Assembly: GCA_037033305.1 (NCBI GenBank)
Contig: JAZBLP010000009.1
Span: 187-64,186, forward strand
DNA: 64,000 bases
Direction of reading: 5' to 3'
From: Actinomycetota bacterium
Lineage (GTDB): Bacteria > Actinomycetota > Actinomycetes > Actinomycetales > Microbacteriaceae
Under the pieces are notes generated by a model. The model was not told where the DNA came from, searched no databases, and worked only from the letters and a program-made list of their open reading frames with translations. This document shows, piece by piece, positions 3,476-18,418 of this stretch. How positions within the stretch are numbered: the stretch's first letter is position 1; each line of letters starts with the position of its first letter. A program made the translations under genes and the position numbers.

Positions 3476-4231
3476 ATGACCAGTCTACCTGGCAATAACA
3501 ACTCGATGGCCCATAAGGGTGATCAGCTAACCTATGGGGAAGAAAAAGAATTCCCTGGTCAGAATGCAATTCACCCTGCTCGTATAAGCTACCCCTTGGG
3601 GGGAGAACAAGAGGTAGAGAGAGAATACAGGAAACCTAAGAGAATCCCCGCCGTCAGGCGGCTAGTGCTCCGTGATGAATCCAGCTTCCGGAACTCGAAG
3701 AACTCTTCTCGTGTGACGAACTCCGACAGGATCAACACGTATGCAATCAAGCTTGCCTACGACTACCTGAACCGTAGCTATCACTATGAGAACAAGAAAA
3801 TGCGATCTGTCGATGATGTGACCTCGCATCTGTTCTCAATCTTGGTAGACCGGCTCAAGCCCGACTACGAGACAGAGCGCGGCATGAAGGGCGTGATGAC
3901 CTACCCGATGGTTGAGCGCTACGCACAGCGCGCCGCAGAGTACGCCGTCGATGCATGGCGACCTGACTACTACGAACTGCAAGACCGGAAGGGTGCCAAG
4001 GGTGGACGCAAGAGCAAGCGTAAGCCTGAGTACACCTACCGTGACTTCCTGGCCGTCGAAGGCCTGACCCACGCCGAAGCCGCCGCCGTGCTGGGGGTTG
4101 CACCGATCACTGTTCGCAGGATGAGGGAGCGTTACAAGAAGGCTTCGCCGGTAACGGGTGACTTCCTCCCACCAGCAATCGAGCCGACGACGACGGGGCC
4201 GACCGTGGAAGAACTCATGAATTGCCTCTGA
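3476..4231 (+). CDS. Hypothetical protein with C-terminal HTH (possible replication/regulatory protein of the element)
   Basis: Track ORF in a lower-GC stretch, with GGAGA upstream of the ATG. The C-terminus LTHAEAAAVLGVAPITVRRMRERYKK resembles sigma70-region-4/HTH. There is a basic patch KGAKGGRKSKRK. Confidence 0.6.
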   Translation: MTSLPGNNNSMAHKGDQLTYGEEKEFPGQNAIHPARISYPLGGEQEVEREYRKPKRIPAVRRLVLRDESSFRNSKNSSRVTNSDRINTYAIKLAYDYLNRSYHYENKKMRSVDDVTSHLFSILVDRLKPDYETERGMKGVMTYPMVERYAQRAAEYAVDAWRPDYYELQDRKGAKGGRKSKRKPEYTYRDFLAVEGLTHAEAAAVLGVAPITVRRMRERYKKASPVTGDFLPPAIEPTTTGPTVEELMNCL

Positions 4232-4387
4232 TAAGCGCTGTGCGCCATTCTGAGCGCCTAACGCGCATTGTCAGGTATCCGTGGACCTGGAGAGAATTGC
4301 ACGCCCGCGCAGATCGCTTACAAAAGAATCTCAGAAAAAGGTGAGAATTGGTGCACTTCTCGCTTGCTCCGCGCGATAGTAGTGATT

Positions 4388-4473
4388 GAGGAAGTGCAGA
4401 GCGGTAACGGCATTCGGCTCGTCTAACCTTCACCGAATGCCGCACGAAAGCTTAAGATTCTCTGCACTTCCTC
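4388..4473. repeat. Nested perfect inverted repeats (14-bp outer stem, 10-bp inner stem); ori-like or structured-RNA element
   Basis: Outer stem: GAGGAAGTGCAGAG (4388-4401) / CTCTGCACTTCCTC (4460-4473). Inner stem: CGGCATTCGG (4408-4417) / CCGAATGCCG (4433-4442). A third partial copy GTGCACTTCTC lies at 4351-4361. Confidence 0.7.
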
Positions 4474-4492
4474 CCAGATTTCAAGGATATTC

Positions 4493-5005
4493 ATGGGAAG
4501 AACGAGTTCGGTGGCCACTCATCCGCAAGTGGCGCGCATCAATTCGATGCTGGATGACGGCGTGACCTATGCGGAAATTGCTCGCACCGTAGGTGGCACG
4601 AGCACGGCAGGAGTCGGGCGCTACGCACTTTCTCGAAAAGGCGAGCTTGCGCGCGTGCTCGACGGTGAGCCGACGACGGCGAACGTGCTCACGCGACTGA
4701 TCGAAGCCGCTGACCACGCCCGAGATTCCCGCCGACTGGCCAAGGCGACCGGTAGCCCCGTCCACCAAGCTCGAATGATCAAGGCCGAATCCGATGTCCT
4801 CACCAAGCTCATTGACGAGCTAGGCATCACGGATACATCCGTGGCCGAGTACGTGGCCGAGGCCGAGTTGTTCACCAAAGCCGTGCAAGTCATGATCCGC
4901 CGCGATCACCAAGCCGGACTTGCTCTGCTCAACGCCGTAGATAGCTTTCCCGAACTAGAGCCGTTCGCCCGAACGCTCGCTAAGTACCTAGGAATCAAAC
5001 GATGA
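4493..5005 (+). CDS. Hypothetical protein with N-terminal HTH-like segment
   Basis: Track ORF. Contains DDGVTYAEIARTVGGTSTAGVGRYAL. It is the first of four translationally coupled genes. Confidence 0.6.
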   Translation: MGRTSSVATHPQVARINSMLDDGVTYAEIARTVGGTSTAGVGRYALSRKGELARVLDGEPTTANVLTRLIEAADHARDSRRLAKATGSPVHQARMIKAESDVLTKLIDELGITDTSVAEYVAEAELFTKAVQVMIRRDHQAGLALLNAVDSFPELEPFARTLAKYLGIKR

Positions 5006-5904: not shown

Positions 5905-6015
5905 TGAGACATCCGTTACACCCGATGGCTAGTTGTACGGATAGCGGCTATTCTCCGTCTCGAAAGCTGTATCTGTGACTTGTCTCAGAAGTGTGTAACG
6001 GATACAGTGTGAGAC
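5905..6015. promoter_or_regulatory. Inverted/direct repeat cluster directly upstream of the serine recombinase gene (candidate res/recombination or operator site)
   Basis: ATCCGTTACAC (5911-5921) is the reverse complement of GTGTAACGGAT (5993-6003). TGAGACA (5905-5911) is the reverse complement of TGTCTCA (5981-5987). TGAGAC recurs at 6010-6015. Confidence 0.5.
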
Positions 6016-6597
6016 ATGACCACTCAGAAGACGTTCGGCTACATCCGAGTCTCGACCGCCGCGCAGAACCTCGACCGTCAGACGGATGCTCTCGTGGCGG
6101 CTGGCATCGACCCCGCCGACATCTACGCCGACAAGATCAGCGGCGTGAAGACCACTCGCCCCGGTCTCGATGACCTCCTCAGCAGAGTTCGCGACGGGGA
6201 CCGTATACAGGTGACCTCGCTTGACCGTCTGGGACGCTCTGCCCTGCACGTGCTCAGCACGATTGCCGAGCTTGAGGAACGCGGCGTCACCGTGCTCAGC
6301 CTCAAGGATGGCGAGAACATGACCGGCGCGACGGGCAAGCTCATGCGCGGCCTCATGACCCTTATGGCTGAGTGGGAGCGCGAGATGAACGCCGAGCGCG
6401 TTGCAGAGGCTAGGGCCGCTCGTGCCGCTCGTGCTCAGGCGGGTGAGCAGGTAGCAGGACGGCCACGTACGGCCCTCTCCCCGTCGAAGGTGGCAGAGGT
6501 ACACAAGCTCAAGGCCAAGGGCCGCACGCCCTCTGAAATCGCCAAGCTGGCAGGCATGAGCCGCGCGAGCGTATACCGCGCTCTGAGCGCCACCTGA
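6016..6597 (+). CDS. Small serine recombinase (resolvase/invertase family) with C-terminal HTH
   Basis: Track ORF. Contains FGYIRVSTAAQNLDRQ (catalytic Ser motif), LDRLGRS, and C-terminal GRTPSEIAKLAGMSRASVYRAL. Confidence 0.9.
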   Translation: MTTQKTFGYIRVSTAAQNLDRQTDALVAAGIDPADIYADKISGVKTTRPGLDDLLSRVRDGDRIQVTSLDRLGRSALHVLSTIAELEERGVTVLSLKDGENMTGATGKLMRGLMTLMAEWEREMNAERVAEARAARAARAQAGEQVAGRPRTALSPSKVAEVHKLKAKGRTPSEIAKLAGMSRASVYRALSAT

Positions 6598-6600
6598 GGC

Positions 6601-6993
6601 CTATGGAAGGGTGATTCGCTCCGTGGGGCCGTCAGTCTCCGTAGCCGTTGCTGAACCCTTCGACTGTGACGGCTCTGGCCACTCATCGAGCAGTGCAGAG
6701 AGCCGATCCCGCTCGCGCTCCAAGAGCTTCCGGTGATCCTGCCCGTGCACCCTAGCCCAAGCGGGGAACTTTGGCTTATCCATGAGCCTGCCCAGCCGTT
6801 CGCTCGTCGTCAGGTACTCGATACGGAAGCTGGCCAGTTCCCGCGCCCATTGCGTCCGCTGGCGAGCTTCCCACTGCTCGATGCTGTCGCCCCTATGCGC
6901 CGCCGTCCTGCACTTGGATGAGCAGAACCTGGCATCACTCCGCCGCGCCTTGAACTCGCGTCCACATCTGTTACACGTCACGTTGTGTGTCAC
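6601..6993 (-). CDS. Hypothetical zinc-ribbon protein
   Basis: Track ORF, GTG start. N-terminal CNRCGREFKARRSDARFCSSKCR carries four Cys arranged as CxxC..CxxxC. Confidence 0.55.
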   Translation of the reverse strand: MTHNVTCNRCGREFKARRSDARFCSSKCRTAAHRGDSIEQWEARQRTQWARELASFRIEYLTTSERLGRLMDKPKFPAWARVHGQDHRKLLERERDRLSALLDEWPEPSQSKGSATATETDGPTERITLP

Positions 6994-7036
6994 AGTTAGG
7001 CCTCATCTCGGTTAATCTCATCGTATGGTGCAGTGC

Positions 7037-7231
7037 TCACGTCGCGTCACGCTCCCCGGCCTCAAGCCAAGCGTTCACATCGCTACGGCGGTAACGGATA
7101 CGCCCACCAGCGCGGATGAAGCGGGGACCCGTCCCGCGATAGCGCATCTGCGCAAGAGCAGGGACGGAGCGCCCGAGCAACGCGGCGAGCGTGGCAGGGG
7201 TCATGAGTTGTTCGTCTGTGTTCGTCGTCAT
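7037..7231 (-). CDS. xis: Excisionase / MerR-AlpA-type HTH DNA-binding protein
   Basis: Track ORF (64 aa). LMTPATLAALLGRSVPALAQMRYRGTGPRFIRAGGRIRYRRSDVNAWLE is the classic excisionase-family HTH. Divergent from the integrase gene. Confidence 0.8.
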   Translation of the reverse strand: MTTNTDEQLMTPATLAALLGRSVPALAQMRYRGTGPRFIRAGGRIRYRRSDVNAWLEAGERDAT

Positions 7232-7314
7232 GGTGCATCTATACGCACGACCTCGACCGTTTCCAAAAGGTCACCCAACTTAACGAATCGACCACTGAGC
7301 CGTAGGGATAGAGC

Positions 7315-8505
7315 ATGAGCAAATCAGCATGGATCGCGGACAGGTGGAGGGGCGAGAAGACGGGCACCGGCCTCAGGTGGCGCGTCGTATGGATCGATCC
7401 CGATACCAAGCGCGAGAAGAGCAAGAGCTTTCGGAAGAAGACTGACGCCGACGCCTTCCGCACCAAGACGGAAGACAGCTTGCGGGGTGACACGTACGTG
7501 TCGCCGCAGATCGCGGCGCTCACTGTCGCAGACGCCGCCGAGGCATGGATGAACTCGAAGAAGAGGATCAAGGCCGCCGCTCGTCGTAAGTACCGTGACG
7601 ACCTCGACAACTACGCTCTGCCACGCTGGGGCCATCTACCCCTGAGCGCCGTCAAGCGTCCCGACATCGAGAAGTGGATCAGTGACCTTGCAGACGGCAC
7701 CGCGCCCCGCAGAGCCGACGCTAAGGCCTTCTCAGGCGTACTCTCCCCCGCGAGCATCGATGGTGTCTTCACCGTCCTGAACGCTTCCCTCCGGTACGCA
7801 GTGCGAGAGGGCTGGATCAGGCAGAACCCGGCGACCGGCGTGGAGACTCCGAAGGCGAAGACGGAACCCGTCATCTTCCTGACTCATCCTGAACTCGAAG
7901 CACTCATCGACGGCACCCGGCAGGCGGGCAACCTGAGCGATGCTGTCATGGTCGCAGTGATGGGGAACATCGGCCTGAGGCCCGGTGAGGCCGTCGCGCT
8001 CGACGTGGCCGACGTGGACATCCCCGCTAAGCGTATTTACGTCTCGAAGACGGTAACGCTTGACGATGACCGCCGTCACGTGATCGGGGACTCTCCGAAG
8101 ACGGCGGCGGGCATCCGCGCAGTACCGATCCCGCCGCATCTGCTCGATGACCTCGACGCGCTCACCAAGGGCCGCGACGACGGCGAACCCCTCTTCACGT
8201 CACCACGGGGCGACCGGCTCAACCTGTACAACTGGCGCGCGCGGAACTGGACCAAGGCCAAGCAAGCGGCAGGGGCACCGGCAGGCCTGACCCCGAAGGG
8301 ACTGAGGCACACTGCCGCATCGCTCGCCATCGCGGCAGGGGCTGACGTGCTCGTGGTTCAACGGATGCTGGGTCACGCCAGCGCGACCGAAACACTCAAC
8401 ACGTACGCGAAGCTGTGGCCGGATCGGTTGGACGAAGTGACAGCGGCGATGTCGAAGGCCAGGACCGAAGCCCTGACTAAGCCTGACCGCTCCCGCTCAT
8501 CCTGA
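7315..8505 (+). CDS. int: Tyrosine-type site-specific integrase
   Basis: Track ORF. Has an N-terminal SAM-like/arm-binding region. The C-terminal catalytic box LRHTAASLAIAAGADVLVVQRMLGHASATETLNTYAKLW shows the R..H-x-x-R..Y pattern. Adjacent to the tRNA attachment site. Confidence 0.92.
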   Translation: MSKSAWIADRWRGEKTGTGLRWRVVWIDPDTKREKSKSFRKKTDADAFRTKTEDSLRGDTYVSPQIAALTVADAAEAWMNSKKRIKAAARRKYRDDLDNYALPRWGHLPLSAVKRPDIEKWISDLADGTAPRRADAKAFSGVLSPASIDGVFTVLNASLRYAVREGWIRQNPATGVETPKAKTEPVIFLTHPELEALIDGTRQAGNLSDAVMVAVMGNIGLRPGEAVALDVADVDIPAKRIYVSKTVTLDDDRRHVIGDSPKTAAGIRAVPIPPHLLDDLDALTKGRDDGEPLFTSPRGDRLNLYNWRARNWTKAKQAAGAPAGLTPKGLRHTAASLAIAAGADVLVVQRMLGHASATETLNTYAKLWPDRLDEVTAAMSKARTEALTKPDRSRSS

Positions 8506-8560
8506 CTACATCCTGAACGGCCTCTGAGGAGCTAGCCGGGATCGCTGGAGCCGGATACAC

Positions 8561-8588
8561 GAAAACCCCCGGATAACCAGGGGTTTTC
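8561..8588. terminator. Hairpin between the integrase gene and tRNA-Arg
   Basis: GAAAACCCC (8561-8569) pairs with GGGGTTTTC (8580-8588) across a 10-nt loop. A/T runs flank it on both sides, so it could act bidirectionally. Confidence 0.55.
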
Positions 8589-8610
8589 TATGCTTACTGT
8601 CTCAACACAG

Positions 8611-8649
8611 TGTGCGCCCGAAGGGACTCGAACCCCTAACCTTCTGATC
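8611..8649. repeat. att direct repeat, tRNA-proximal copy
   Basis: 38 of 39 positions identical to 2425-2463. Overlaps the 3' half of tRNA-Arg. Confidence 0.9.
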
Positions 8650-8685
8650 CGTAGTCAGATGCTCTATCCATTGAGCTACGGGCGC
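8613..8685 (-). tRNA. tRNA-Arg (anticodon ACG)
   Basis: The reverse complement GCGCCCGTAGCTCAATGGATAGAGCATCTGACTACGGATCAGAAGGTTAGGGGTTCGAGTCCCTTCGGGCGCA folds as a cloverleaf. Acceptor is GCGCCCG/CGGGCGC, anticodon loop is CTACGGA, T-loop is TTCGAGT. CCA is not encoded. Confidence 0.93.
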
Positions 8686-8751
8686 TCCTGGACCGCTCAG
8701 CGGGCCGTAGAACAGCCTACAACAGACGCGACGCGAAAGCGAAACGAGCGC

Positions 8752-9333
8752 TCACTCGTCACTGTCGGGCGTGTTCTGCTTCTTCTTCCGCTTCGCCTTC
8801 GCGCGCTGCAGAGACGACAGCGCCTGCAGGTCGACGAGTCGCAGCGCCTGCATCCGCGCCTCGCGCATCCGGTCGTAGTCGGGGTCCTGATCGGGTCGCA
8901 TGCCCTCGACACGCAGACGACGATCGAGGTTGTGCCGCACGTCGGCCCAGGCGCCTTCTCGCGCCTCTTCGACGATGACGCGCAGGGCGGCCTCGTCCTC
9001 CATCATGTCGCGCAGCTTGGTCGCGACCCCGTGCGACTGCTTGGCCCGCCGACGCAGGTTGCGCACGTCGCGGTCTCGGTAGTCGTGGGTGCCGGAGGGA
9101 TCGGAATGGCGACCGCGAGCGCGTTTGCGCAGCTCGGTCAGGTTGCGCTCGACCTCTTCGGATTCCTCGGCCATCGCCCGCAGCGCTTCGCGCGCATCGG
9201 CCACGTACTTGTCAGTGTCGAAGACGCCGTTCTCGGCGATCGTGCCGATGAGGATGTGATTCTTCACGGCGAGGCGCGCCGCAGCGGTCGCGATCGCAAC
9301 GCCTTCGGCGATGGCATCCGCTGTTCGTCCCAC
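8752..9333 (-). CDS. Conserved hypothetical protein (Arg/Glu-rich helical)
   Basis: Track ORF 8752..9423. I prefer the GTG start at 9333, which is preceded by GGAAGGAGG. The product begins VGRTADAIAEGVAIATAAARLAVKNHILIGTIAENGVF. Confidence 0.6.
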   Translation of the reverse strand: MGRTADAIAEGVAIATAAARLAVKNHILIGTIAENGVFDTDKYVADAREALRAMAEESEEVERNLTELRKRARGRHSDPSGTHDYRDRDVRNLRRRAKQSHGVATKLRDMMEDEAALRVIVEEAREGAWADVRHNLDRRLRVEGMRPDQDPDYDRMREARMQALRLVDLQALSSLQRAKAKRKKKQNTPDSDE

Positions 9334-9461
9334 CCCTACCTCCTTCCTTCGAGAGTACCGGTATCGCTCGGGGATGCAGTGGGCCAGAATGGATCGGAAT
9401 CGGGTCGCTCCGACCCGCTCCACGACCGGCCGCGCTCCCGATCGCCGCCAGGAGGGATGCG

Positions 9462-10301
9462 ATGAAGCGTCTCACGCTCACCGGAAGCACGACGGTCATC
9501 ACCGGCGCTGCGAGCGGGATGGGGGCCGACATCGCCCGGCTGCTGGCTGCCCAACGCGTGCATCTGGCGCTCATCGACCACAACGCCGACGGTCTCGCAG
9601 CCATCGCCGCCGAGCTCACCGACGCCACCGTCACCACCCACGTGGTCGACCTGCGAGACGACGACGCCGTCTTCGCCACAGCCGAGGAGATCACCGCCGC
9701 GCACCCGAGGGTGAATGCGCTGATCACGTGCGCGGGCTCGTCGATGCTCGGCGACATCGATCAGCTGACCATGGAGGAGATGCGCTGGCTGACAGATGTG
9801 AATCTCTGGGGCACGGTGTCGATCACGAAGGCGCTGCTCCCCGCCCTGCGAGCGGCGCCCACGGCCCACATCACGCACCTTGCGAGCGTCTACGCGCTGG
9901 CCGCGCCCGCGGGACGCATCCCCTACTCCCTGAGCAAGTTCGCGGTACGCGGGTTCTCCGAAGCACTGCGCCACGAACTCGACGGCACTTCGGTGACGGT
10001 GGGCGCGGTGTATCCGGCCGGCGTGCGCACGGGCATCATCCTGCACGGACGGTATGCCGCGGCGCTCGATCCGGCCGTCGCCGCGAGGGCCGCGGCGGCA
10101 CAGGCAGCGATGTACCACACCGAGCCCGCGGATGCCGCGGCGCTGATCGTGCGGGCGACCGAACGTCGCCGCCCACGGACGATGGTCGGACGGGAGGCGC
10201 GACTGATCGATGTGCTCACGCGCCTCGCACCGTCGAGCTACTGGCGCGTCATGCGGCGCCCCCTGCGAGAGGCCGTCGACACGACCACGCCGGTCGCCTG
10301 A
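9462..10301 (+). CDS. SDR family oxidoreductase
   Basis: Track ORF. Contains ITGAASGMGADIA (TGxxxGxG) and YSLSKFAV (YxxxK), with AGGAGGG upstream. Confidence 0.88.
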   Translation: MKRLTLTGSTTVITGAASGMGADIARLLAAQRVHLALIDHNADGLAAIAAELTDATVTTHVVDLRDDDAVFATAEEITAAHPRVNALITCAGSSMLGDIDQLTMEEMRWLTDVNLWGTVSITKALLPALRAAPTAHITHLASVYALAAPAGRIPYSLSKFAVRGFSEALRHELDGTSVTVGAVYPAGVRTGIILHGRYAAALDPAVAARAAAAQAAMYHTEPADAAALIVRATERRRPRTMVGREARLIDVLTRLAPSSYWRVMRRPLREAVDTTTPVA

Positions 10302-10302
10302 G

Positions 10303-11166
10303 TCAGCCGACCGCGCCGACCCAGATCCCCGACGCCCACGCCTGCTGATCGGCATCGCATCCGACGGATCCCGGATAACCCCGCACGACCGCCATGCAGT
10401 TCGCGAGGAACTCGGGGTCACCGCCGAACGCCGAGTAGTAGGCATCCGAGGATGTCAGGGCGCTCCACACCCGGAACTGGTAGATGTGCGCCAGCTCGTG
10501 CGCCATCGCCCAGTTCAGTCGGTCGGCGCTCCAGTCGACGATGTCGGCCCGGTATTTGATGAAGCCACCGCTGTTCGCGCATGCGGGCGCGGTTCCCCCT
10601 GCACACGAGGCCGACTCGTAGAGCCCGACTCCCCCGCCGCCCACCTGGTCGAGAGCCGCGCGCACTCGTGCGAACCCGTCCGGACCGCTCGACGACCACG
10701 CGGGGCCCGAGGGAGCCGCATACTGCGCCGCCTCCCAGCTGCCGATGTCCTGCCCCACCTTGTCGATGAGGGCATGCACGGTGGCGGTGGCAGCGACCAC
10801 GGTGGCCGGGTTCTTCCGCTCGTCGAGCACGGCCTGCTGGGCCGACTGCGCGGATGCCCGGTGCGCCGAGGTGTCGACCTTGCCGGTCGCTCCTTCGATC
10901 GCCGCAGTCAGTGCGTGGATCTCGTCGACGAAGGCCGGCCGCACCTCGAGCACGGCGGCGCGCGCCGCCGCATCCTTCTCGGCGATGGCGATCGATCCTT
11001 CGAGGTGATCGGTGCGCATCTCCGCGGCCCGAGCAGACTGCGTCAGCGACTGCAGCTCGGCGATCGCGGCCGCCCTGTCTTCGTCCAGGGCCGCGGCGCG
11101 ACCGACGACGCCCGCAGCCAGCAACACGGCGGCGACGATCGTGACGGAGAGGAACCGCCGGATCAC
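10303..11166 (-). CDS. Secreted protein with N-terminal coiled-coil region and C-terminal HExxH (putative zinc metallopeptidase)
   Basis: Track ORF. Signal/anchor MIRRFLSVTIVAAVLLAAGVV, an Ala/Glu-rich helical segment, and WAMAHELAHIYQF (HExxH). Confidence 0.65.
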   Translation of the reverse strand: MIRRFLSVTIVAAVLLAAGVVGRAAALDEDRAAAIAELQSLTQSARAAEMRTDHLEGSIAIAEKDAAARAAVLEVRPAFVDEIHALTAAIEGATGKVDTSAHRASAQSAQQAVLDERKNPATVVAATATVHALIDKVGQDIGSWEAAQYAAPSGPAWSSSGPDGFARVRAALDQVGGGGVGLYESASCAGGTAPACANSGGFIKYRADIVDWSADRLNWAMAHELAHIYQFRVWSALTSSDAYYSAFGGDPEFLANCMAVVRGYPGSVGCDADQQAWASGIWVGAVG

Positions 11167-11176
11167 AGAGTTCGCC

Positions 11177-11422
11177 TCATGGCAGGAAACCCGAGGTGTC
11201 CGAGAGCAGCGTCTCCTGCTCGGCGATCGTCGTGCGCAATGCGGTCAGCTGCTCGGCGAGATGGAGATTCGCCTCGCGCGCATGGTCGAGCCGTTCCTCC
11301 GCCTGGACGACAGCCGCTCTCGCCTCGGCGAGGGCATCCACACGCTGCTGGTCCGCGACCGCGAGGAGCACCGTCCCGCCGAGGAGCAGCAGGCCTCCGG
11401 TCACGACAGCGACAGCTCTCAT
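11177..11422 (-). CDS. Small membrane-anchored coiled-coil protein
   Basis: Track ORF 11177..11470 starts at a TTG. I prefer ATG 11422, preceded by GGGAG: MRAVAVVTGGLLLLGGTVLLAVADQQRVDALAEARAAVVQAEERL.. Confidence 0.55.
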   Translation of the reverse strand: MRAVAVVTGGLLLLGGTVLLAVADQQRVDALAEARAAVVQAEERLDHAREANLHLAEQLTALRTTIAEQETLLSDTSGFLP

Positions 11423-11587
11423 ATCGCTCCCCAGGACACGACGAAATTCGGAACCGTTCCGTATGGCCAATATATCCCCGCGGGAGACCGCTCTCCAGGC
11501 CGCTTGCGGCAGCGGCAGCGCGAAAGAAGATTACGAAGAGCAGCAGGATCAGGAACATGGGCGGTCTGCACGGCGCGAACGCACCTT

Positions 11588-11901
11588 CGTGGATTTCGTG
11601 ATCTACACCCGCATCAGCCTTGACCGCACGGGCGAGGGTTGCGGGCGGCTCGCCAAGAGCAGGAGTGCCGCGTCCTGGCTGAGCGCCTGGCATGACAGCT
11701 ATCCACGTATTTAGCGACAACGACACCACCGCCATGAGCGGAAAGGTGCGCGCCCCAGCTTTGAAGCCAGGTGTGTGGGGCGGCCTATCGATGGACGCCA
11801 AGCGCGCCGTGCTGGATGCCCTCGTGACGGTGACCATCCTGGCCAGCGGCAGCGGCAAGGCGTTCGATCTGGAGACCGAACGCGTCACCTGGAAAGCCTA
11901 G
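11588..11901 (+). pseudogene. Remnant of a large serine recombinase (frameshifted N-terminus fused to the extreme C-terminus)
   Basis: Three frames together read (V)DFVIYTRISLDRTGEG / GLRAARQEQECRVLAERL / MTAIHVFSDNDTTAMSGKVRAPALKPG.., matching the resolvase-domain N-terminus of large serine recombinases but with at least 2 frameshifts. It then jumps directly to a C-terminal-type tail ..KRAVLDALVTVTILASGSGKAFDLETERVTWKA*. Confidence 0.7.
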
Positions 11902-11960
11902 ATTCGCATGAAAGGGCTGTTGACGTCATGTCTGACGCTGACGCACCGCACGTGGCCGGG

Positions 11961-13031
11961 CTACTCCCGTGGCAGCCGGTGTGCAGTGTCGAGTCGGAAT
12001 GCGTTCGCTCGTGCGAGCGCTCTACCGATCGGGGTGATGTAATACCCGCTGTCGGCGTGCCGATCCCACCATTCAGCGACGGCACCAAAGCTCGGCAACT
12101 CGTGAATCTTGTTCATCAGTTCGGTCCGGGCCAAGTCGTCCTGTTGGCCCAGACCAAACTCTGACGCCGCCTGGCTCATCACCGTCTGCACATATGTCTC
12201 AGATTTGCCAGCGTGGCGGAGCATCTTCTCAAGTGCAGCACCGTTCGGTACTCCGATGCGGACGTGCCCGTTCTTGAGCTCGTGAGGAAGGACGAGCACC
12301 GGCCAGGGTTCCTCAGCGAGGTCAGCGCCGACGAACTGAGGCGCTGCGTCGAAAGCGGCACCCGGAGCGATATATCCATTGAGTTGCTCCCCGTAGTACT
12401 GCTCCATTTTTTTCATTCCACTCAGAGGGTTGCGGCGGAGGGCGTTGAGGGCATCGAGATGGTCAAGCCAGTCTGTCCCCTCGGGCAGAGGCCCGTCTAG
12501 CAGGGAAGAATAAATTGATTCGAACAGGTCAAGGCCCAAAGCAATCACGGGCGATGTCGCCGTCCACTGCGCTACCGCGTTGGACACGGTTAACGCCCGT
12601 AGTGCCTCCGAATCGATACGATCCACGATGTCGATCGCACCGTCGATGCCCACGATACGTGGACGCTCGCGTGGATTCTTTGCTCGATCGATGAGCAACG
12701 CTGCCAGCATGTCGTAGTCAGCGGGACGCTCACTGGACGCCGCACCCTCTTGGGCCTTCTTGTAGGAGCGGATGAACGCAGGATCTGCGAATGAATCGAG
12801 CGCGTCAACGTTGGACAAGTTCTTGATGACCCGTTGGTCGAGCTCTTCGACCCGCGCCTGGAGTATCTGGTGCGACTCGACCGCGAACTCTTCAACGACA
12901 CGTCGAGCGTTGGCGAGCGATATCTCCTGGGCGCGCTCCTCGGTGATGCCAACGTTGACGATATAGTCGCCTGCGATCTGCACCTGCTTAGAGCCCTGGC
13001 CACCCTTCTGGCTCTGCTCGCTGCCCGTCAT
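11961..13031 (-). CDS. Hypothetical 356-aa protein (from memory resembles the uncharacterised LPO_1073/Vpar_1526-type family)
   Basis: Track ORF in lower-GC DNA. The N-terminus is SEQSQKGGQGSKQVQIAGDYIVNVGITEERAQEISL.., followed by a helical body. Its ATG overlaps the stop of the upstream small ORF (TAATG). Confidence 0.7.
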   Translation of the reverse strand: MTGSEQSQKGGQGSKQVQIAGDYIVNVGITEERAQEISLANARRVVEEFAVESHQILQARVEELDQRVIKNLSNVDALDSFADPAFIRSYKKAQEGAASSERPADYDMLAALLIDRAKNPRERPRIVGIDGAIDIVDRIDSEALRALTVSNAVAQWTATSPVIALGLDLFESIYSSLLDGPLPEGTDWLDHLDALNALRRNPLSGMKKMEQYYGEQLNGYIAPGAAFDAAPQFVGADLAEEPWPVLVLPHELKNGHVRIGVPNGAALEKMLRHAGKSETYVQTVMSQAASEFGLGQQDDLARTELMNKIHELPSFGAVAEWWDRHADSGYYITPIGRALARANAFRLDTAHRLPRE

Positions 13032-13210
13032 TACTTGTTGCCTTTCGCGTCGCGGCCAATCTGCATCTGCGTTGCGTTATCGCCAGCGCGCTGTCTCTGC
13101 TTCACCGATGAACGTTTCGACATGATGCGCCATGTGACCGTGCTACCTGCAGTACCCCCAAGGATCAAGCCGATAAGCATGGTGCCCAGCCCGTCCAAGA
13201 ACCAGTCCAC
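13031..13210 (-). CDS. Small membrane peptide (59 aa, below the track cut-off)
   Basis: My translation from GTG 13210 (GGAGGATCC immediately upstream): VDWFLDGLGTMLIGLILGGTAGSTVTWRIMSKRSSVKQRQRAGDNATQMQIGRDAKGNK*. It has one TM helix and a basic tail. The stop overlaps the ATG of the 356-aa gene. Confidence 0.5.
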   Translation of the reverse strand: MDWFLDGLGTMLIGLILGGTAGSTVTWRIMSKRSSVKQRQRAGDNATQMQIGRDAKGNK

Positions 13211-13582
13211 GGATCCTCCGCTCTCGGGTGCCGTTCACCCGTCAGTCACGATACCAACCACCGCCGATTTGTCGCCCCTCAGCTGGCGGATAGGTATGAC
13301 GGGAAATACCGGCGTCCGCAGTTGATCATCATCGAGGGCCAACGTTAGGAAGCTTCGAGTACGGTCACGCATTTGCCTGAAAGGCCCCCTTCAGGAAAAC
13401 CTTGAGACGATCGGCAATGACCCTCGGGAGCGACCATCCGCCTACGCAGCGCTGTCACTCTGCGTTCAAGCACGGCGCGAGTTGGGGCCGGAAATGACTA
13501 CGGCGCGGCATGCGTCTTCGCTTGGGCGACGCATCAGCCCGGGCTCTGGCATGATTACCAGCACATCCACCGGGAGGTTCAC

Positions 13583-15172
13583 GTGGCAATGCTCGGCCTA
13601 GATATCGTAGCGGGCGCGAAGATCGTCAAGACCGAGCAGTTTGGCGATTGGTACCGCGATCCATGGGGTTGGCCCGAGACAACCCACGAGTTCGCCGAAA
13701 CCCTTACCTTCGAAGACCTAGGCGTGTCGAAGCGGGGAAATCGATATGTCTACGAAGCTACGCCAGACTTCCATCTGTTCGACGTTCCTAAGTCATTCAT
13801 AGGCGTGCGACCCGCGGTCATCCAGGACGTGCGGAGCCGGCTGGCCTACACGGCAGCTGCAGACGGCTTGGCGGCCCGGCTGCACGCCGACCTGCCCGAG
13901 TGGGTTTACGGCTGGCGCTACCGAGATGGAATCTACGGGAGGACCAACGAATGGAAGCTGTATCAGGAAAACCAAGCTGACGTCCATCGTCAGGACTTCG
14001 CGGCTCAGACCGATATCACTTCGTTCTTTGCGTCGATAGATGTCGACAGATTGATCGACAGGATTACCGACAACGTCGGCGCGGCCAACGTTTCGACTGA
14101 CATCGTGCGGAAAGTGCTGGCTACGCATAACCTGCTTCACGGGCGAAGCGGAATACCGCAGCGCAGTTCCGCCTCCGCGTTTCTCGCTCACACCGCCTTG
14201 CGGCAGGTTGATGACCTGCTCGGGTCCCTCATGCAATCCGGGGAACTGACGGCGGCTCGGAGGTGGATGGACGACATCAGTTTTGAAGGCCCCGAGTCGG
14301 CGATGTACGGAGCGCTCTTGCAGCTTCAACAGTCTTGCCGCCAGGAGGGTCTAGAGATCAATGCCCTCAAGACAATGCTCATCTCTGGTGAACAGAGCGC
14401 TCAGCGCTTGCATGAGGAAGCGCAAGGCTTAATCAGGCTGCCCGTCACAACGACGCGCGTTACCAACGACTACGAAGACTTCGAGATGACATTCGTAGAC
14501 CGAGGGGCGTTGCAGGAGGCGGAGGAGGATGTGCTGTCGTCACCGAGCCGAGCGCCGCGATCTAAAGTTGGCATCGTCCTGAAAAGCCTCGTCCGCTACG
14601 ACGAGTACTCTCGCATCACCGATTGGATGTCAGCAGCCAAATACCTTCCGCACGCGGCGGACAAACTGAGTCGCTACTTGGCCGCTGGTAATCGCTCCCT
14701 GTGGGGGTTCGGCTTGAACCTCGCCGAATGGTTCACGGAGTTGCAGCTATCCGGATGGCCCCACGTGGAATGGGTTCAGGCACAGCACGCGCTCGCAGTT
14801 CCGTCCGAGGACGTCGATGAGGCGATGCGCGCGATTCTGGAGAGCTGGCTCAGCGAGAGCTCGAACCTCCAAAAGGTGGCGGTGGCAGTCCAACGGATCG
14901 CGGCCGCACATCCGGTTCGGTACCGAGCTTTGGTGGCCGCTCGCATGGACTCAGTACACGATCCTCTGCTGACGCGGCTCCTCGCGCTAGGCCTTCTCAT
15001 GGCCGCCCAGCCAAAGGATGGCGTGCGTCAGGCTCTTCGACGTCACCCAAGTAACGCACTGACGCTCAAGTACTTGGAGGCGAGAGATTGGCGTCTGCCC
15101 AACGTTCCAGACGACTTTGATCCGATCCATGACAACGAAGACGGCGCCGATGAATCAGAAGCGGCGCCGTAA
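13583..15172 (+). CDS. Reverse transcriptase, stand-alone, UG/Abi/DRT-like (RT core + C-terminal helical domain)
   Basis: Track ORF, GTG start after GGGAGG. RT motifs read in the translation: FDVPKSFIGVRPAVIQDVRSRL (1/2), QTDITSFFASIDVDRL (A), GIPQRSSASAFLAHTAL (B), RRWMDDISF (C), LEINALKT (D/E). About 230 aa of Leu/Ala-rich helical sequence follows. Confidence 0.88.
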   Translation: MAMLGLDIVAGAKIVKTEQFGDWYRDPWGWPETTHEFAETLTFEDLGVSKRGNRYVYEATPDFHLFDVPKSFIGVRPAVIQDVRSRLAYTAAADGLAARLHADLPEWVYGWRYRDGIYGRTNEWKLYQENQADVHRQDFAAQTDITSFFASIDVDRLIDRITDNVGAANVSTDIVRKVLATHNLLHGRSGIPQRSSASAFLAHTALRQVDDLLGSLMQSGELTAARRWMDDISFEGPESAMYGALLQLQQSCRQEGLEINALKTMLISGEQSAQRLHEEAQGLIRLPVTTTRVTNDYEDFEMTFVDRGALQEAEEDVLSSPSRAPRSKVGIVLKSLVRYDEYSRITDWMSAAKYLPHAADKLSRYLAAGNRSLWGFGLNLAEWFTELQLSGWPHVEWVQAQHALAVPSEDVDEAMRAILESWLSESSNLQKVAVAVQRIAAAHPVRYRALVAARMDSVHDPLLTRLLALGLLMAAQPKDGVRQALRRHPSNALTLKYLEARDWRLPNVPDDFDPIHDNEDGADESEAAP

Positions 15173-15604
15173 GCAAGCGCTCCTGCGCCCCCTCGAGCTC
15201 CTCTTGGCGCGCACGCACGCACACGCTCGCCGTGCCCTTCGTTCGATTCTGGGCAGCCTTCCGCGGACGCCCCTGACGGCTTTCTCTGAGATAGCCCAAC
15301 CGAAACTTCGTCCCCGCCATGCTCTGGCCATGAGCTTGCCCACGGTCCCTCGGCGCGTGGTGTCGACAACAGCTCGCATGGGCACGACTACACACTTCCG
15401 CGTCCAGCGCGGCGGGGCACGAAGGAAAACCCAGTTCAAAAGGCATGTTACCGAACTGCGCCCACCAGCGCCACGCTGCCGCATTTGGCCTACCTGGCCG
15501 GCACGTCGGGACTGCCGGTAGCTGCGGGGCCGCTCAGAGAACCCTCAGAGCCGCTCACACCGATCCCGCGCGTCGGGCCTCACCAGTCCCCGGCACAGAC
15601 CCAA

Positions 15605-15814
15605 AGGTGCGTTTACGCGATTGTTGAGAACCTCCTAGATGAGAAAAACCTCTTTGACCGCGATTTCGGCCTTGCGCACTTGTCGATGGTGAGCCTAACG
15701 GAAGCCTCGGTTCTCCACCACGAGTTCAATAAGACCGAGCAGAATCGCCTCGTGGACCGTGATCCCGATCGGTGGAGGTATGCGAACGACGACGGTGTTA
15801 TCTACCCGGAGTAA
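15605..15814 (+). other. Protein-like ORF tail (possible gene remnant or 42-aa small ORF from ATG 15686)
   Basis: Only the last ~70 codons of track ORF 15485..15814 look protein-like (VYAIVENLLDEKNLFDRDFGLAHLSMVSLTEASVLHHEFNKTEQNRLVDRDPDRWRYANDDGVIYPE). The upstream part is Pro/Gly/Ala noise with no convincing start. Confidence 0.3.
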
Positions 15815-15842
15815 TTGAAGACCGGAGTCCTAGCCGCTCGAC

Positions 15843-15881
15843 GTACCCTTGCGTGTCGTTTGATACGCAAGGGTACCTTTT
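15843..15881 (+). terminator. Strong intrinsic terminator
   Basis: GTACCCTTGCGT (15843-15854) pairs with ACGCAAGGGTAC (15865-15876) across a 10-nt loop, followed by CTTTT. Confidence 0.8.
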
Positions 15882-15945
15882 CGTAATTGTGTTGGGCATA
15901 AGTATCAGGATCTCTCTTTGCCACCAGCCTGTTCCGACCGGCTGC

Positions 15946-16605
15946 TCAGATCGAGAAGGCCTGGTCGGTGAGGCGTCGCTCGGCAGCCTGCTGGCCGCTG
16001 GCCAGATGGCGAGGGACCATCACGCGGAGGGCGTCGGTGTCACGTGCGGCGACGGCCTCGAGGATCAGCCGATGCTCTTCGGCCATCGCGAGCAGATCGT
16101 CGTGCTGGCCGAAGAGCCAGCGCAGCCGGGTGACGAACACCGCGATGAGCTCGCCCAGCATCTCGTTGCCCGCGAGCTCGGCGGAGATCTCGTGGAACTC
16201 GCCCGCAGCGATCCGTGCTGCATCGGTCTCGCCGGCGGATGCTGCGGCGAATTCGCGCTCGTAGGCGGCCCGAAGCCGCGCGATCCCCTCATCGGTGTGA
16301 CGTTCGGCGGCGAAGACGAAGATCAGGGTCTCGATCGCCTCGCGCACCTCACCGAAATCCTGGATGTCGCGATGCGTGAACTCGCGCACGACGGCCCAGG
16401 TCCGCGGGCGGGCGACAACCACTCCCTCGCCGACGAGAGTGCGGATCGCCTCGCGCACCGGAAGCCGCGAGACGTTGAGCTCGGCCGCGATATCGCGTTC
16501 GATGAGCCGGGAACCCGGGGCGCGCCGACCGAGCACGATGTCGTCGCGAAGAACGCGCGTCACCCGCACCGACTCGAGTTCGCCGGTAGTCCCCACCCCC
16601 GCCAT
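15946..16605 (-). CDS. GntR family transcriptional regulator (FadR/FCD type)
   Basis: Track ORF. Contains LIERDIAAELNVSRLPVREAIRTLVGEGVVV followed by a helical FCD-like C-terminus. Confidence 0.88.
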   Translation of the reverse strand: MAGVGTTGELESVRVTRVLRDDIVLGRRAPGSRLIERDIAAELNVSRLPVREAIRTLVGEGVVVARPRTWAVVREFTHRDIQDFGEVREAIETLIFVFAAERHTDEGIARLRAAYEREFAAASAGETDAARIAAGEFHEISAELAGNEMLGELIAVFVTRLRWLFGQHDDLLAMAEEHRLILEAVAARDTDALRVMVPRHLASGQQAAERRLTDQAFSI

Positions 16606-16741
16606 AACCGAATTGTCTCACTCGGAGAACCGCCCGACAAGTTTGGTATCCCAGGGCGGCGCGGATGTTACGGGCGCGTGGTCGCGGTCGGACGCGAGAG
16701 AGGGAGCGGATGCCTCGGCATCCGCTCCCTCGTCTGAGTCG

Positions 16742-17383
16742 TCAGGGCCGACGGTTGGCGATCGCGAGGTTCGCCTTCAGCTCGTCGGCGTTCTGCCGCA
16801 CGACGTATGCCGGGCGGTCGCGCTCGACCCTCCAGGACTCGCTGAGGGGTCCGACGTTGACCGTGTCGAAGCCGGCTTCGTCATAGAAGCGGGTGACGAA
16901 GGCGACGGCCTCTGCATCGTCGCCCGCCGTGGCGAGCGCACGCCGATCGGCCGTGCCCGCCGGCGAGCCATCGGTCGTGATGTCGGCCGCGAAGATGTGG
17001 TTGAACGCCTTCGCGATCCGAGACGTCGGCAGCTGGGCCTGCAGAAGCTCAGAGGTGGTGGTCTCGCCGCGGTCGAGGGCGTCGATGCGCCCGTCGCGTT
17101 CGAAGTAGTAGTTGTTCGTGTCGAGCACGATCTTGCCGGCGAGCTGCTCGACCGGCAGCTCGTCGATCTTGCCCAGGGGCACCGTGACGACGACGGCGTC
17201 GCCGGCCGCAGCGGCATCTGCGGCTGTCGCAGCCGATGCTCGATCGCCGAGCTCCGCGACGAGGTCTGCGAGTGTCTCCGGACCGCGTGAGTTCGCGATC
17301 ACCACGTCATAGCCGTTGGCCACCGCGACGCGAGCGACCTGGCTGCCGATGTGTCCTGCACCGATGATTCCGAGAGTAGTCAT
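16742..17383 (-). CDS. NAD(P)-binding oxidoreductase (NADPH-dependent F420 reductase-like)
   Basis: Track ORF. MTTLGIIGAGHIGSQVARVAVANGYDVVIANSRGPE is a Rossmann N-terminus. Confidence 0.75.
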   Translation of the reverse strand: MTTLGIIGAGHIGSQVARVAVANGYDVVIANSRGPETLADLVAELGDRASAATAADAAAAGDAVVVTVPLGKIDELPVEQLAGKIVLDTNNYYFERDGRIDALDRGETTTSELLQAQLPTSRIAKAFNHIFAADITTDGSPAGTADRRALATAGDDAEAVAFVTRFYDEAGFDTVNVGPLSESWRVERDRPAYVVRQNADELKANLAIANRRP

Positions 17384-17439
17384 GCTGGGCCCAACGCGCG
17401 CCCCGCGCCGCTATTCCCGGGTGACTCCGTGTGTCGCGA

Positions 17440-18387
17440 TCACACCGTGAGCAGGAAGCGCTCCTCGACCCGGCGATAGCCAAGGCTCTCGTAGAGCCGG
17501 ATCGCCGAGGCGTTGAAGCCGAAGACATGCAGCCCCATCGAGTCGGCGCCGAGTCGAGCCGCCTCGCGCTCGGCCGCGAGCATGAGATCCCGGCCGTAGC
17601 CCTTGCGACGCTGGTCCTCGGCGACCTCGATGTCGAGGATGAACCCGTGCGGCCGCCCGCCACGGCGACGGATGCCGATCCACAGCACCCCGACCTCGAC
17701 ACCGTCGACACGGGCGGTGAACAGCTCCTGCCCCTCCGAATCGATGCCGTCCGGCAGCTCGAGCTCCATCTGCCGGTGCGACTCGACCGCAGCATCGGCG
17801 GGGGAATATCGTCCGGATGCCACCAGATCGTCCGCGAAGGCCGCCTCGGATGCGGCGGCGAAGCTCGTGAAGCGCTCCGGGGTCATCGTCGCCACGACGA
17901 ACCCGTCGTCTGTCGGCTGCACCGCCCGGGACGGGAGGGGTTCGAGAAGCATCTGGATCGACGCGACCTCGAATCCCCGCCCCTCGACGAAATCGCGGCC
18001 GGCGGTGTCGGAGGCATGCAGGGCGACACTCAGACGACCGACCCGCTGCCGGCGCGCGAGCGCCGTCAGCTCGTCGAGCAGATCATCGAGCTGACGGGCG
18101 CTGGGCTCGGTCGCGAACGCGAGATCGACGATGAACAGCACGCCGTTGTTCGCGGCGAGCCAGCCGGTGCCGATCCGGGTGTCGCCGTCGTCGATCGTCA
18201 GGATGAGCGAGGTCTCGGTGTCATGCCCGGCCGGGAGCAGCTCGTCGAGCACGGCGTCGACGTGCGCGACGGCATCGACGCCGACGTACATCCCCGATTC
18301 CTGTCGCAGCGTCACCAGGCGGGCCCTGGTGGCCTCACGCCAGTCGTCGAAGCCTTCGGCGGTGAGAGGTGTCAGTGCAACAGGCAT
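17440..18387 (-). CDS. GNAT family N-acetyltransferase (two-domain)
   Basis: Track ORF 17440..18402 (GTG start). ATG 18387 is an equally plausible start. C-terminal domain: ILDIEVAEDQRRKGYGRDLMLAAEREAARLGADSMGLHVFGFNASAIRLYESLGY. Confidence 0.85.
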   Translation of the reverse strand: MPVALTPLTAEGFDDWREATRARLVTLRQESGMYVGVDAVAHVDAVLDELLPAGHDTETSLILTIDDGDTRIGTGWLAANNGVLFIVDLAFATEPSARQLDDLLDELTALARRQRVGRLSVALHASDTAGRDFVEGRGFEVASIQMLLEPLPSRAVQPTDDGFVVATMTPERFTSFAAASEAAFADDLVASGRYSPADAAVESHRQMELELPDGIDSEGQELFTARVDGVEVGVLWIGIRRRGGRPHGFILDIEVAEDQRRKGYGRDLMLAAEREAARLGADSMGLHVFGFNASAIRLYESLGYRRVEERFLLTV

Positions 18388-18418
18388 GGATCCATCCTGC
18401 ACCGCATCGCCTCGACGC

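Follow-up and report, generated by a model that had tools for sequence, protein, structure and literature searches.

The DNA analysed here (the window) is a stretch of 64,000 nt from contig JAZBLP010000009.1 of an actinobacterium of the Microbacteriaceae, in which a lower-GC island at ~11400–15900 carries the gene of a reverse transcriptase (RT) of the UG33 group followed by a tail (15173–15881) that is poor in open reading frames (ORFs) and closes with an intrinsic terminator. An earlier note on this DNA had seen in the tail either an RT-associated non-coding RNA (ncRNA), possibly a template, or the decayed gene of an RT partner. Where so many nucleotides poor in ORFs follow an RT of the defence type, a template RNA readily comes to mind, but the comparison of homologous loci shows that unrelated pieces meet here. 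The feature is an ordinary junction containing a truncated gene, and its association with the RT is not supported. The main value of the analysis lies in this negative result. The features involved, with their positions in the window, are the following:

13539..13582, + strand: leader of the RT cassette, 44 nt, where nucleotide similarity to the closest RT loci fetched (L039/L040) begins (alignment A4)
13583..15172, + strand: UG33 reverse transcriptase, intact and stand-alone (PADLOC RT_UG33, AlphaFold2 model, fold matches)
15173..15343, no strand: block A, C-rich non-coding DNA after the RT stop, in common only with a very close relative, X4
15344..15622, no strand: block B, non-coding orphan DNA for which searches of X4, proteins, plasmids, phages, and RT loci gave no relative
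15623..15814, + strand: remnant of a dCTP deaminase-like (DCD-like, Pfam PF22769) gene, its 3' third (protein matches P0121–P0124; blastn matches L041–L043)
15815..15925, + strand: 3' flank of the DCD-like gene, which includes the terminator (alignments A2 and A3)
15843..15881, + strand: intrinsic terminator (terminator scan, inverted repeat I2, fold energy)
15946..16605, convergent: GntR/FCD regulator gene, the next after the tail

The GC content of the window is 66.9% overall and 69% in the flanks of the island. Within the latter, the part to the left of the RT has 60.6% GC, the RT 59.6%, the stretch 15173–15600 67.3%, and the stretch 15605–15814 54%. The 450 nt between the RT stop and the remnant (15173–15622) are strongly C-rich, with a GC skew of -0.17 overall and of -0.26 in the first 170 nt, and block A (15173–15343) is made up of 42% C and 25% G. 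ORFs of more than 100 codons are present within 15173–15622 in five frames and are Arg/Pro/Ala-rich; the GC content of this stretch by codon position is flat, at 0.64–0.69 in all six frames, in comparison to 0.65/0.44/0.70 in the RT, and none of the ORFs matches a family of Pfam, PHROGs, or PADLOC. A concatenated six-frame search of 15173–15622 in 5.8 billion proteins did not give any homolog among the 8000 candidates scored. These results bear out what had been read from the letters alone, namely that no credible protein is found for about 430 nt after the RT stop at 15172, that the ORFs listed there are noise, and that 15173–15600 is GC-richer than the rest of the island.

The RT ORF starts with a GTG codon, preceded at 6 nt by the Shine-Dalgarno-like GGGAGG, and ends with a TAA stop at 15170–15172; in the leader alignment A4 the segment GGGCTCTGGCATGATTnCCAnCACA..CACCGGGAGGTTCAC is nearly invariant. 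The protein is, over its full length, a UG33 member of the UG/Abi family. In particular, the PADLOC profile RT_UG33 is matched with an E-value of 1.1e-164 over profile positions 3–489 of 490 and, among the best 25 of 55 matches on which the PADLOC comparison rests, the next-best profile is UG23 (1.5e-29), followed by UG9, UG32, UG21, and UG22. The homologs collected were 150. Motif residues are invariant among them, and 29 aligned homologs all have the catalytic D144 of motif A (TDITSFF) and M229-D230-D231 of motif C. An AlphaFold2 model built on 29 homologs, with a predicted local distance difference test (pLDDT) value of 89.4, is composed of the RT core and of an all-helical repeat (alphaRep) region (308–500), and the last 12 residues are disordered. 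The best full-length matches retrieved by Foldseek in the PDB are AbiK, with a template modelling (TM) score of 0.60, DRT6 (0.56), AbiA (0.50), and DRT4 (0.49); the ncRNA-dependent DRT9, DRT2, and retron RTs reach 0.30–0.35, over the RT core only. The sequence identity to the solved enzymes is 9–15%.

In Mestre et al. 2022 (PMC9226505), UG33 is a group created from part of UG23 whose defence prediction is given as 'inconclusive', and UG23, UG9, UG32, UG21, and UG22 are discussed among Class 1, which is characterized by an RT joined to a helical-repeat domain. The Class 1 systems studied so far synthesize DNA without a nucleic-acid template, the ncRNA-templated systems being those of Class 2, and template-independent, protein-primed synthesis is described for AbiK, DRT4, and DRT3b (PMC13174585). 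Given the Class 1-type fold of the RT, a neighbouring RNA is by analogy not expected to be needed; like AbiK, DRT4, DRT6, and DRT3b, the enzyme would make DNA without a template.

What is kept around the RT was determined in about 90 homologous loci, which include 38 genome loci, 47 metagenome loci, and the contigs on which the six proteins nearest to the RT are encoded. The closest ones fetched, L039 and L040, are 86% identical to the RT in amino acids and 82–84% in nucleotides; their BLAST match to the window covers 13539–15133, with a weak similarity that goes on to the coincident stop codons. In a direct alignment of both with the window nothing was aligned beyond the RT stop, and on the 5' side the shared part is limited to ~44 nt, ribosome-binding site (RBS) included. 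Loci L045–L048 (69–73% aa identity) have the RT alone in common with the window. When related loci were paired with each other, the similarity was found to end at -40 to +27 nt relative to the RT stop, or already within the RT gene, in 19 of 21 pairs, the two exceptions being a 92%-identical Streptomyces pair (+233/+243 nt) and the pair L032/L035, which has a frameshifted RT.

The space after the RT is also limited. In the nearest relatives the next genes start 83–189 nt past the RT stop, so that there is no room for an RNA of 400 nt, and in roughly 15 loci the next ORF is found less than 200 nt past the stop. In the nearest relatives the neighbours all differ: L040 (2106–2849) has a multi-pass membrane protein of 247 aa and L045 (1751–3337) a P-loop protein of 528 aa with a weak AAA_16 match, both encoded in the same orientation as the RT, and there are proteins of 237 aa in L039, 1150 aa in L046, and 90 aa in L047, all convergent. 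Neither the 247-aa nor the 528-aa protein has a PADLOC match, and the two downstream genes may be variable effector-like neighbours. The clustering of the ORFs of 41 loci did not reveal a shared partner gene; what recurs is limited to shadow ORFs antisense to the RT and to a single unannotated cluster with scattered members, of which the one in the window overlaps the integrase gene 7315..8505. The tail and the 550 nt upstream of the RT gave only noise by blastn and tblastx against the 38 genome loci, the 47 metagenome loci (best RT identity 69%) showed no similarity to the tail and no relative of the DCD-like gene, and no k-mer or CA-repeat motif was enriched upstream or downstream of the RT in 36 loci.

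As for the loci in themselves, the contexts of the UG33 RTs are unrelated to each other, which would be expected if a cassette of one gene moves horizontally, and in L001–L038, most of which have the RT at ~6001–7560, the GC content of the RT is below that of the upstream DNA in 37 of 38 cases and equal to it in L025 (42–62% vs 53–73%). In the Streptomyces clade formed by L014, L016, L017, and L018 the similarity reaches 226–473 nt upstream of the RT start (6001), and in L024/L038 it reaches ~950 nt upstream; this shared upstream DNA could be a clade-specific gene or RNA. In an Actinomyces-type clade with ~40% aa identity to the RT of the window (L058, L054–L057, L060–L066, L068, and L084), ~650 nt after the RT stop are common to 14/14 loci, which are close relatives, 91–99% identical and with long shared flanks. 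In L058 this stretch (4055–4730) is more variable than the RT, except for a 120-nt element (4275–4400) that is conserved like coding sequence and whose minus strand forms a long hairpin (z = -2.6) with no Rfam match; an antisense ORF of 61 codons, preceded by a good RBS, is located at 4478–4663. The DNA shared within the Actinomyces and Streptomyces clades has no match to the tail of the window.

The first 450 nt of the tail are themselves composite. Public DNA runs with this locus are available from the own strain, X1 (depth 56), X2, and X3 (low depth), and from a related strain, X4, present in a canine metagenome, whose contigs are ~88–99% identical to the RT, roughly 94% overall. A 466-nt contig of X4 matches 15182–15343 with ~89–91% identity, differing at 14 substituted positions and by the loss of 4 nt at 15212, inside a CACG repeat; after 15343 it diverges and continues with the unrelated CGCCTACCTCACGTCATACAAGAACACCGC. 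Since X4 keeps block A and then diverges, the tail itself is a mosaic. In this comparison block A diverges faster than the RT (~89–91% and a 4-nt indel vs ~94%), and the indel is not a multiple of three. Block A is absent from L039, L040, and every other RT locus examined, and block B has no relative in X4, in plasmid or phage collections searched in distant mode, or in the ~90 RT loci. To judge from these alignments, block A is inherited with this RT sub-lineage and block B is an orphan.

A different origin emerges for the following segment. The open frame 15290–15811 has no match in Pfam, PHROGs, or PADLOC, but a protein search with it retrieved four proteins of 191–193 aa with PF22769, P0121–P0124 (E-values from 1e-31 to 2e-19), whose matches are confined to the last 45–57% of the query; the best of them, P0121 (1e-31), is 80% identical over 79 matched residues. 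In blastn, 15623–15825 (203 nt) is 89–90% identical, with no gaps, to the loci L041, L042, and L043. The break of similarity at 15623 is sharp, the 89–90% identity giving way to no similarity at all, and is accompanied by a change in GC content (54% on the remnant side vs 66% on the orphan side). In P0121 the PF22769 DCD domain corresponds to residues 7–122, and the window keeps ~131–193 of 193; in fact, 15623–15814 encodes the C-terminal 63 residues with three substitutions with respect to P0121, and the stop codon is also shared. The 18–19 mismatches of the retained coding part are distributed as 2/1/15–16 over codon positions 1/2/3, a pattern which implies that purifying selection acted on the gene during nearly the whole of its divergence and that it was cut recently rather than slowly decayed.

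The remainder of this gene is not found in the window: the intact DCD proteins gave no tblastn match upstream of ~15512–15575 or elsewhere up to E = 10, and no remnant of the DCD N-terminus or of a 170-aa partner was found in other parts of the window. In the intact loci the gene is paired divergently with that of a 170-aa membrane protein in 4/4 cases and no RT is present; the other genes of these loci left no trace in the window, and no DCD relative was detected in the UG33 loci examined. By homology, the protein-like, lower-GC stretch 15605–15814, already noticed to have no proper start and corresponding to the C-terminal 63–79 residues of a 191–193-aa family, is a truncated DCD-like gene that has lost its start codon and is not an RT partner. 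The suspicion of a decayed partner gene is hence half right, as the last ~190 nt are a truncated DCD-like 3' end, and half wrong, as the intact copies are never located beside an RT.

The divergent pair to which the DCD-like gene belongs in the intact loci (L041:113–1300, L042:2116–3303, L043:117–1304, and L044:5385–6576) is formed by the 170-aa protein, which has an N-terminal membrane helix, and the 191–193-aa PF22769 protein. These loci otherwise differ in their neighbours, which include a DNA methylase, HTH regulators, and large proteins of unknown function; neither protein of the pair matches PADLOC, and the pair could form a small module for nucleotide metabolism or one of defence type.

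The terminator is constituted by a 15-bp stem (15843–15876) with eight GC pairs and a 4-nt loop, followed by the T-run CTTTTCGTAA, and its predicted fold has an energy of -31.6 kcal/mol (z = -5.49 vs shuffles), in accordance with the near-ideal terminator previously described there. The hairpin is held by a substituted stretch of ~50 nt, after which the similarity to the DCD loci resumes (TTTTCGTAATTGTGTTGGGCA...) and extends to ~15925; since this similarity is present on both sides of the hairpin, the terminator is located inside the 3' flank of the DCD gene itself and is no part of the RT cassette. The RT mRNA would be devoid of a terminator of its own and would either read up to 15843–15881 or be ended earlier by Rho. 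A transcript running on towards the terminator is plausible from the order of the features, and an end due to Rho is possible because the stretch directly after the stop is untranslated, C-rich, G-poor, and unstructured, as is typical of the sites where Rho enters.

The signals generally associated with an ncRNA were searched for in the tail. In comparison to shuffled sequences the orphan block as a whole has no excess of structure (z = +0.25/-0.25 on the two strands), and the same is true for block A (z = -0.11) and block B (z = +0.78). In an Rfam scan of 11000–17000 with E <= 1 the sole match was a chance one to a snoRNA, outside the tail. The repeat search did not give anything notable in the tail, where the terminator is the only strong inverted repeat. 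The short local repeats listed in the earlier note are indeed present at the positions given there, but are no more frequent than expected by chance: for CCGCTCA the window contains 13 matches vs 19 expected, and for CACGCACGCACACGC, with up to two mismatches, it contains one match vs one expected.

The resemblance to single known systems was also considered. The head-to-tail concatenation that had been suggested, according to DRT2-type logic, gave unremarkable results: the longest circular segment free of stops in all frames is 187 nt on the + strand and 217 nt on the - strand, the median of other 670-nt windows of the sequence is 213 nt, and the test is uninformative in GC-rich DNA; moreover, the UG2/Drt2 profile is not among the best 25 of 55 PADLOC matches to the RT. 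Retron RT profiles give weak matches (E-values from 1e-8 to 1e-10) over the core only; a retron msr/msd, which would be flanked by inverted repeats, is not indicated by Rfam, and the terminator is the only strong inverted repeat of the tail. DRT3 contains two RTs in one operon, the Class 2 UG3 (DRT3a) and the Class 1 UG8, and a downstream ncRNA whose ACACAC template loop is used by DRT3a (PMC13174585). In the window the Drt3a profile matches the RT weakly and over the RT core only (3.7e-12), and no second RT was detected among the ORFs scanned in 7315–18402. An ACACAC motif is present in block B (15390–15395), the only copy on the + strand of the window, with 0.05–0.12 copies expected by chance in the tail; it falls in the 12-nt loop of a 7-bp hairpin at ~15380–15410 predicted as the minimum free energy structure of a single sequence, a superficial likeness to the template loop of DRT3. 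This hairpin lies beyond the point of divergence of X4, in which block B has no counterpart.

Taken together, these data make it very probable that recombination left the tail as a scar, a mosaic junction within an island that is variable and low in GC, and that the tail has no function together with the RT. The UG33 RT would be a self-contained single-gene cassette, consisting of the ~44 nt leader with the RBS and of the ORF, which came to adjoin the stump of an unrelated DCD-like gene. A deletion or an illegitimate recombination would have removed the first ~130 codons of this gene and presumably also its divergent 170-aa partner gene, the survivors being the last ~63 codons, the stop, the terminator, and the 3' flank (15623–~15925). 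Of the ~450 nt that separate the remnant from the RT stop, which are C-rich, non-coding, and unstructured, the first 170 would have come with the RT sub-lineage, and the next 280 are orphan. As regards the ncRNA or template that had been proposed here, no downstream block is conserved in the ~90 loci, there is neither an excess of structure nor an Rfam match, and part of the region aligns to a gene remnant; the lack of a conserved block and the presence of a recognisable pseudogene are the findings that the earlier note had itself given as contrary to its proposal.

Some points weigh against the interpretation of the tail as a scar. To our knowledge no UG33 enzyme has been characterized, and the membership of UG33 in Class 1 would follow from the nearest PADLOC profiles and from the modelled fold. 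ORF-poor stretches of ~650 nt also occur after the RT in the Actinomyces clade, and several UG33 clades have long ones. Block A co-occurs with the RT in the independent sample X4, as an element of the sub-lineage would, the comparison being of two sequences only. Furthermore, according to Mestre et al. (PMC9226505), DRT ncRNAs can diverge strongly in sequence between subgroups. Due to this divergence, the absence of sequence similarity is weaker evidence than the absence of room, and the case against a conserved tail RNA rests mainly on the lack of space in the nearest relatives and on the lack of a structure signal.

Among the alternatives, the one that survives best, though improbable, is that block A (15173–15343) with its CACG repeat is a sub-lineage-specific ncRNA or template used by this RT. 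Its location directly after the RT stop in the independent X4, with ~90% identity, would be in agreement with this role, as would the downstream ncRNA with a CA-repeat template in DRT3 and the strong variation of DRT ncRNAs between subgroups; however, the block is missing in L039, in L040, and in every other UG33 locus examined, the 4-nt indel of X4 falls inside the CACG repeat and the substitutions are more numerous than in the RT, the fold is not distinguishable from that of shuffled sequences and has no Rfam match, the RT fold is of the template-independent Class 1 type, and DRT3a, the Class 2 RT by which the DRT3 ncRNA is used, is not present in this locus. More doubtful still is that a lineage-specific RNA, deriving from the CACG/CA run of block A (15212–15226) or from the ~15380–15410 hairpin, acts as a short repeat template for the UG33 RT; if this were true, a Class 1-type single-RT system would be ncRNA-dependent, like DRT3a, DRT9, and DRT10.

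It is equally hard to credit that the 109-codon ORF 15485–15814, with a TTG start, encodes a small chimeric protein with a DCD-like C-terminus that acts with the RT. The frame is open, its last 63 codons are intact and differ from the homologs almost only in third positions, and its GC content by codon position is coding-like overall (0.67/0.42/0.72); this signal, however, comes from the homologous 3' part only, since the N-terminal ~46 codons are located in the orphan block of flat composition, and the third-position bias is explained equally well by a recent truncation. Neither the TTG nor the internal ATG is preceded by a Shine-Dalgarno sequence, the region of the DCD domain (residues 7–122) is missing, and no UG33 locus examined has a DCD neighbour.

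Least likely of all is that the tail in its entirety is what heavy erosion has left of a full-length DCD-like gene, which could once have been a true downstream partner of the RT: the size would be adequate, as 579 nt before 15814 place the start of a 193-codon gene near 15236, just past the RT stop, but tblastn finds nothing upstream of ~15512–15575 at E = 10, the similarity at 15623 falls sharply from 89–90% to none, the GC content jumps from 54% to 66% at the same point, the retained part has the pattern of purifying selection and not of erosion, and intact DCD genes are not neighbours of RTs. The RT ORF and the DCD remnant are also in the same frame, with only the TAA at 15170–15172 and a TGA at 15287–15289 between them; a fusion of the two by stop-codon read-through was rejected, the intervening frame being flat in codon composition and with no homolog, and the shared frame was judged a coincidence.

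On the left side of the island a 356-aa orphan protein is encoded at 11961–13031 on the - strand, the sole match of which is weak (phrog_19542, function unknown, E-value of 5e-7). It is separated from the RT by ~550 nt of ORF-poor DNA (13032–13582), of which the last 44 nt alone are common to other RT loci. Further to the left a tyrosine integrase gene (7315–8505, + strand; Phage_integrase, phrog_1 with an E-value of 7e-71) adjoins a tRNA-Arg(ACG) gene (8612–8685, - strand), the end of the integrase gene facing the 3' end of the tRNA gene. This arrangement points to another integrated element on the left of tRNA-Arg(ACG), distinct from the RT island.

The picture of UG33 that results from the comparison of the loci is that of a single-gene cassette, made up of ~44 nt of leader and the ORF, which occurs in many contexts in Actinobacteria with a GC content below that of its surroundings and has a Class 1 fold; for an enzyme of this kind untemplated DNA products are to be looked for rather than an ncRNA. 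In addition, the truncated neighbour points to a small conserved pair, DCD-like protein and 170-aa membrane protein, which is not in PADLOC and may be a nucleotide-depletion-type module.

In comparison to known systems, the locus shares with DRT3 and with DRT2, DRT9, and DRT10 a non-coding stretch that adjoins a UG/Abi RT. It also has a CACG/CA-rich run 40 nt past the RT stop and the one ACACAC in the predicted loop (15390–15395). The ncRNAs of these systems, downstream in DRT3 and upstream in DRT2, DRT9, and DRT10, are conserved within subgroups, structured, and used by Class 2 RTs (UG3, UG2, UG28, and UG17). The tail differs from them in the lack of a Class 2 RT, of conservation, of a structure signal, and of an Rfam match, and from DRT3 also because a single RT is present and the Class 2 RT of the DRT3a type is absent. 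With the DCD-like proteins (PF22769) of Microbacteriaceae-type actinobacteria, for example Salinibacterium sp. SWN139, the likeness consists of the last 63 residues, the stop, and the 3' flank; in contrast to the intact gene, the window has lost the first ~130 codons, the whole Pfam region, the divergent 170-aa partner, and the start codon context. For the RT the likeness is to AbiK, DRT4 (UG15), and DRT6 (UG12), which provide the best full-length fold matches and share the RT core and the C-terminal helical-repeat domain; at 9–15% identity, template independence and protein priming are attributed to the UG33 RT by analogy only. The closest counterpart is the UG33 group itself, to which the RT corresponds both in the full-length profile match and in being a stand-alone gene with no conserved neighbour.

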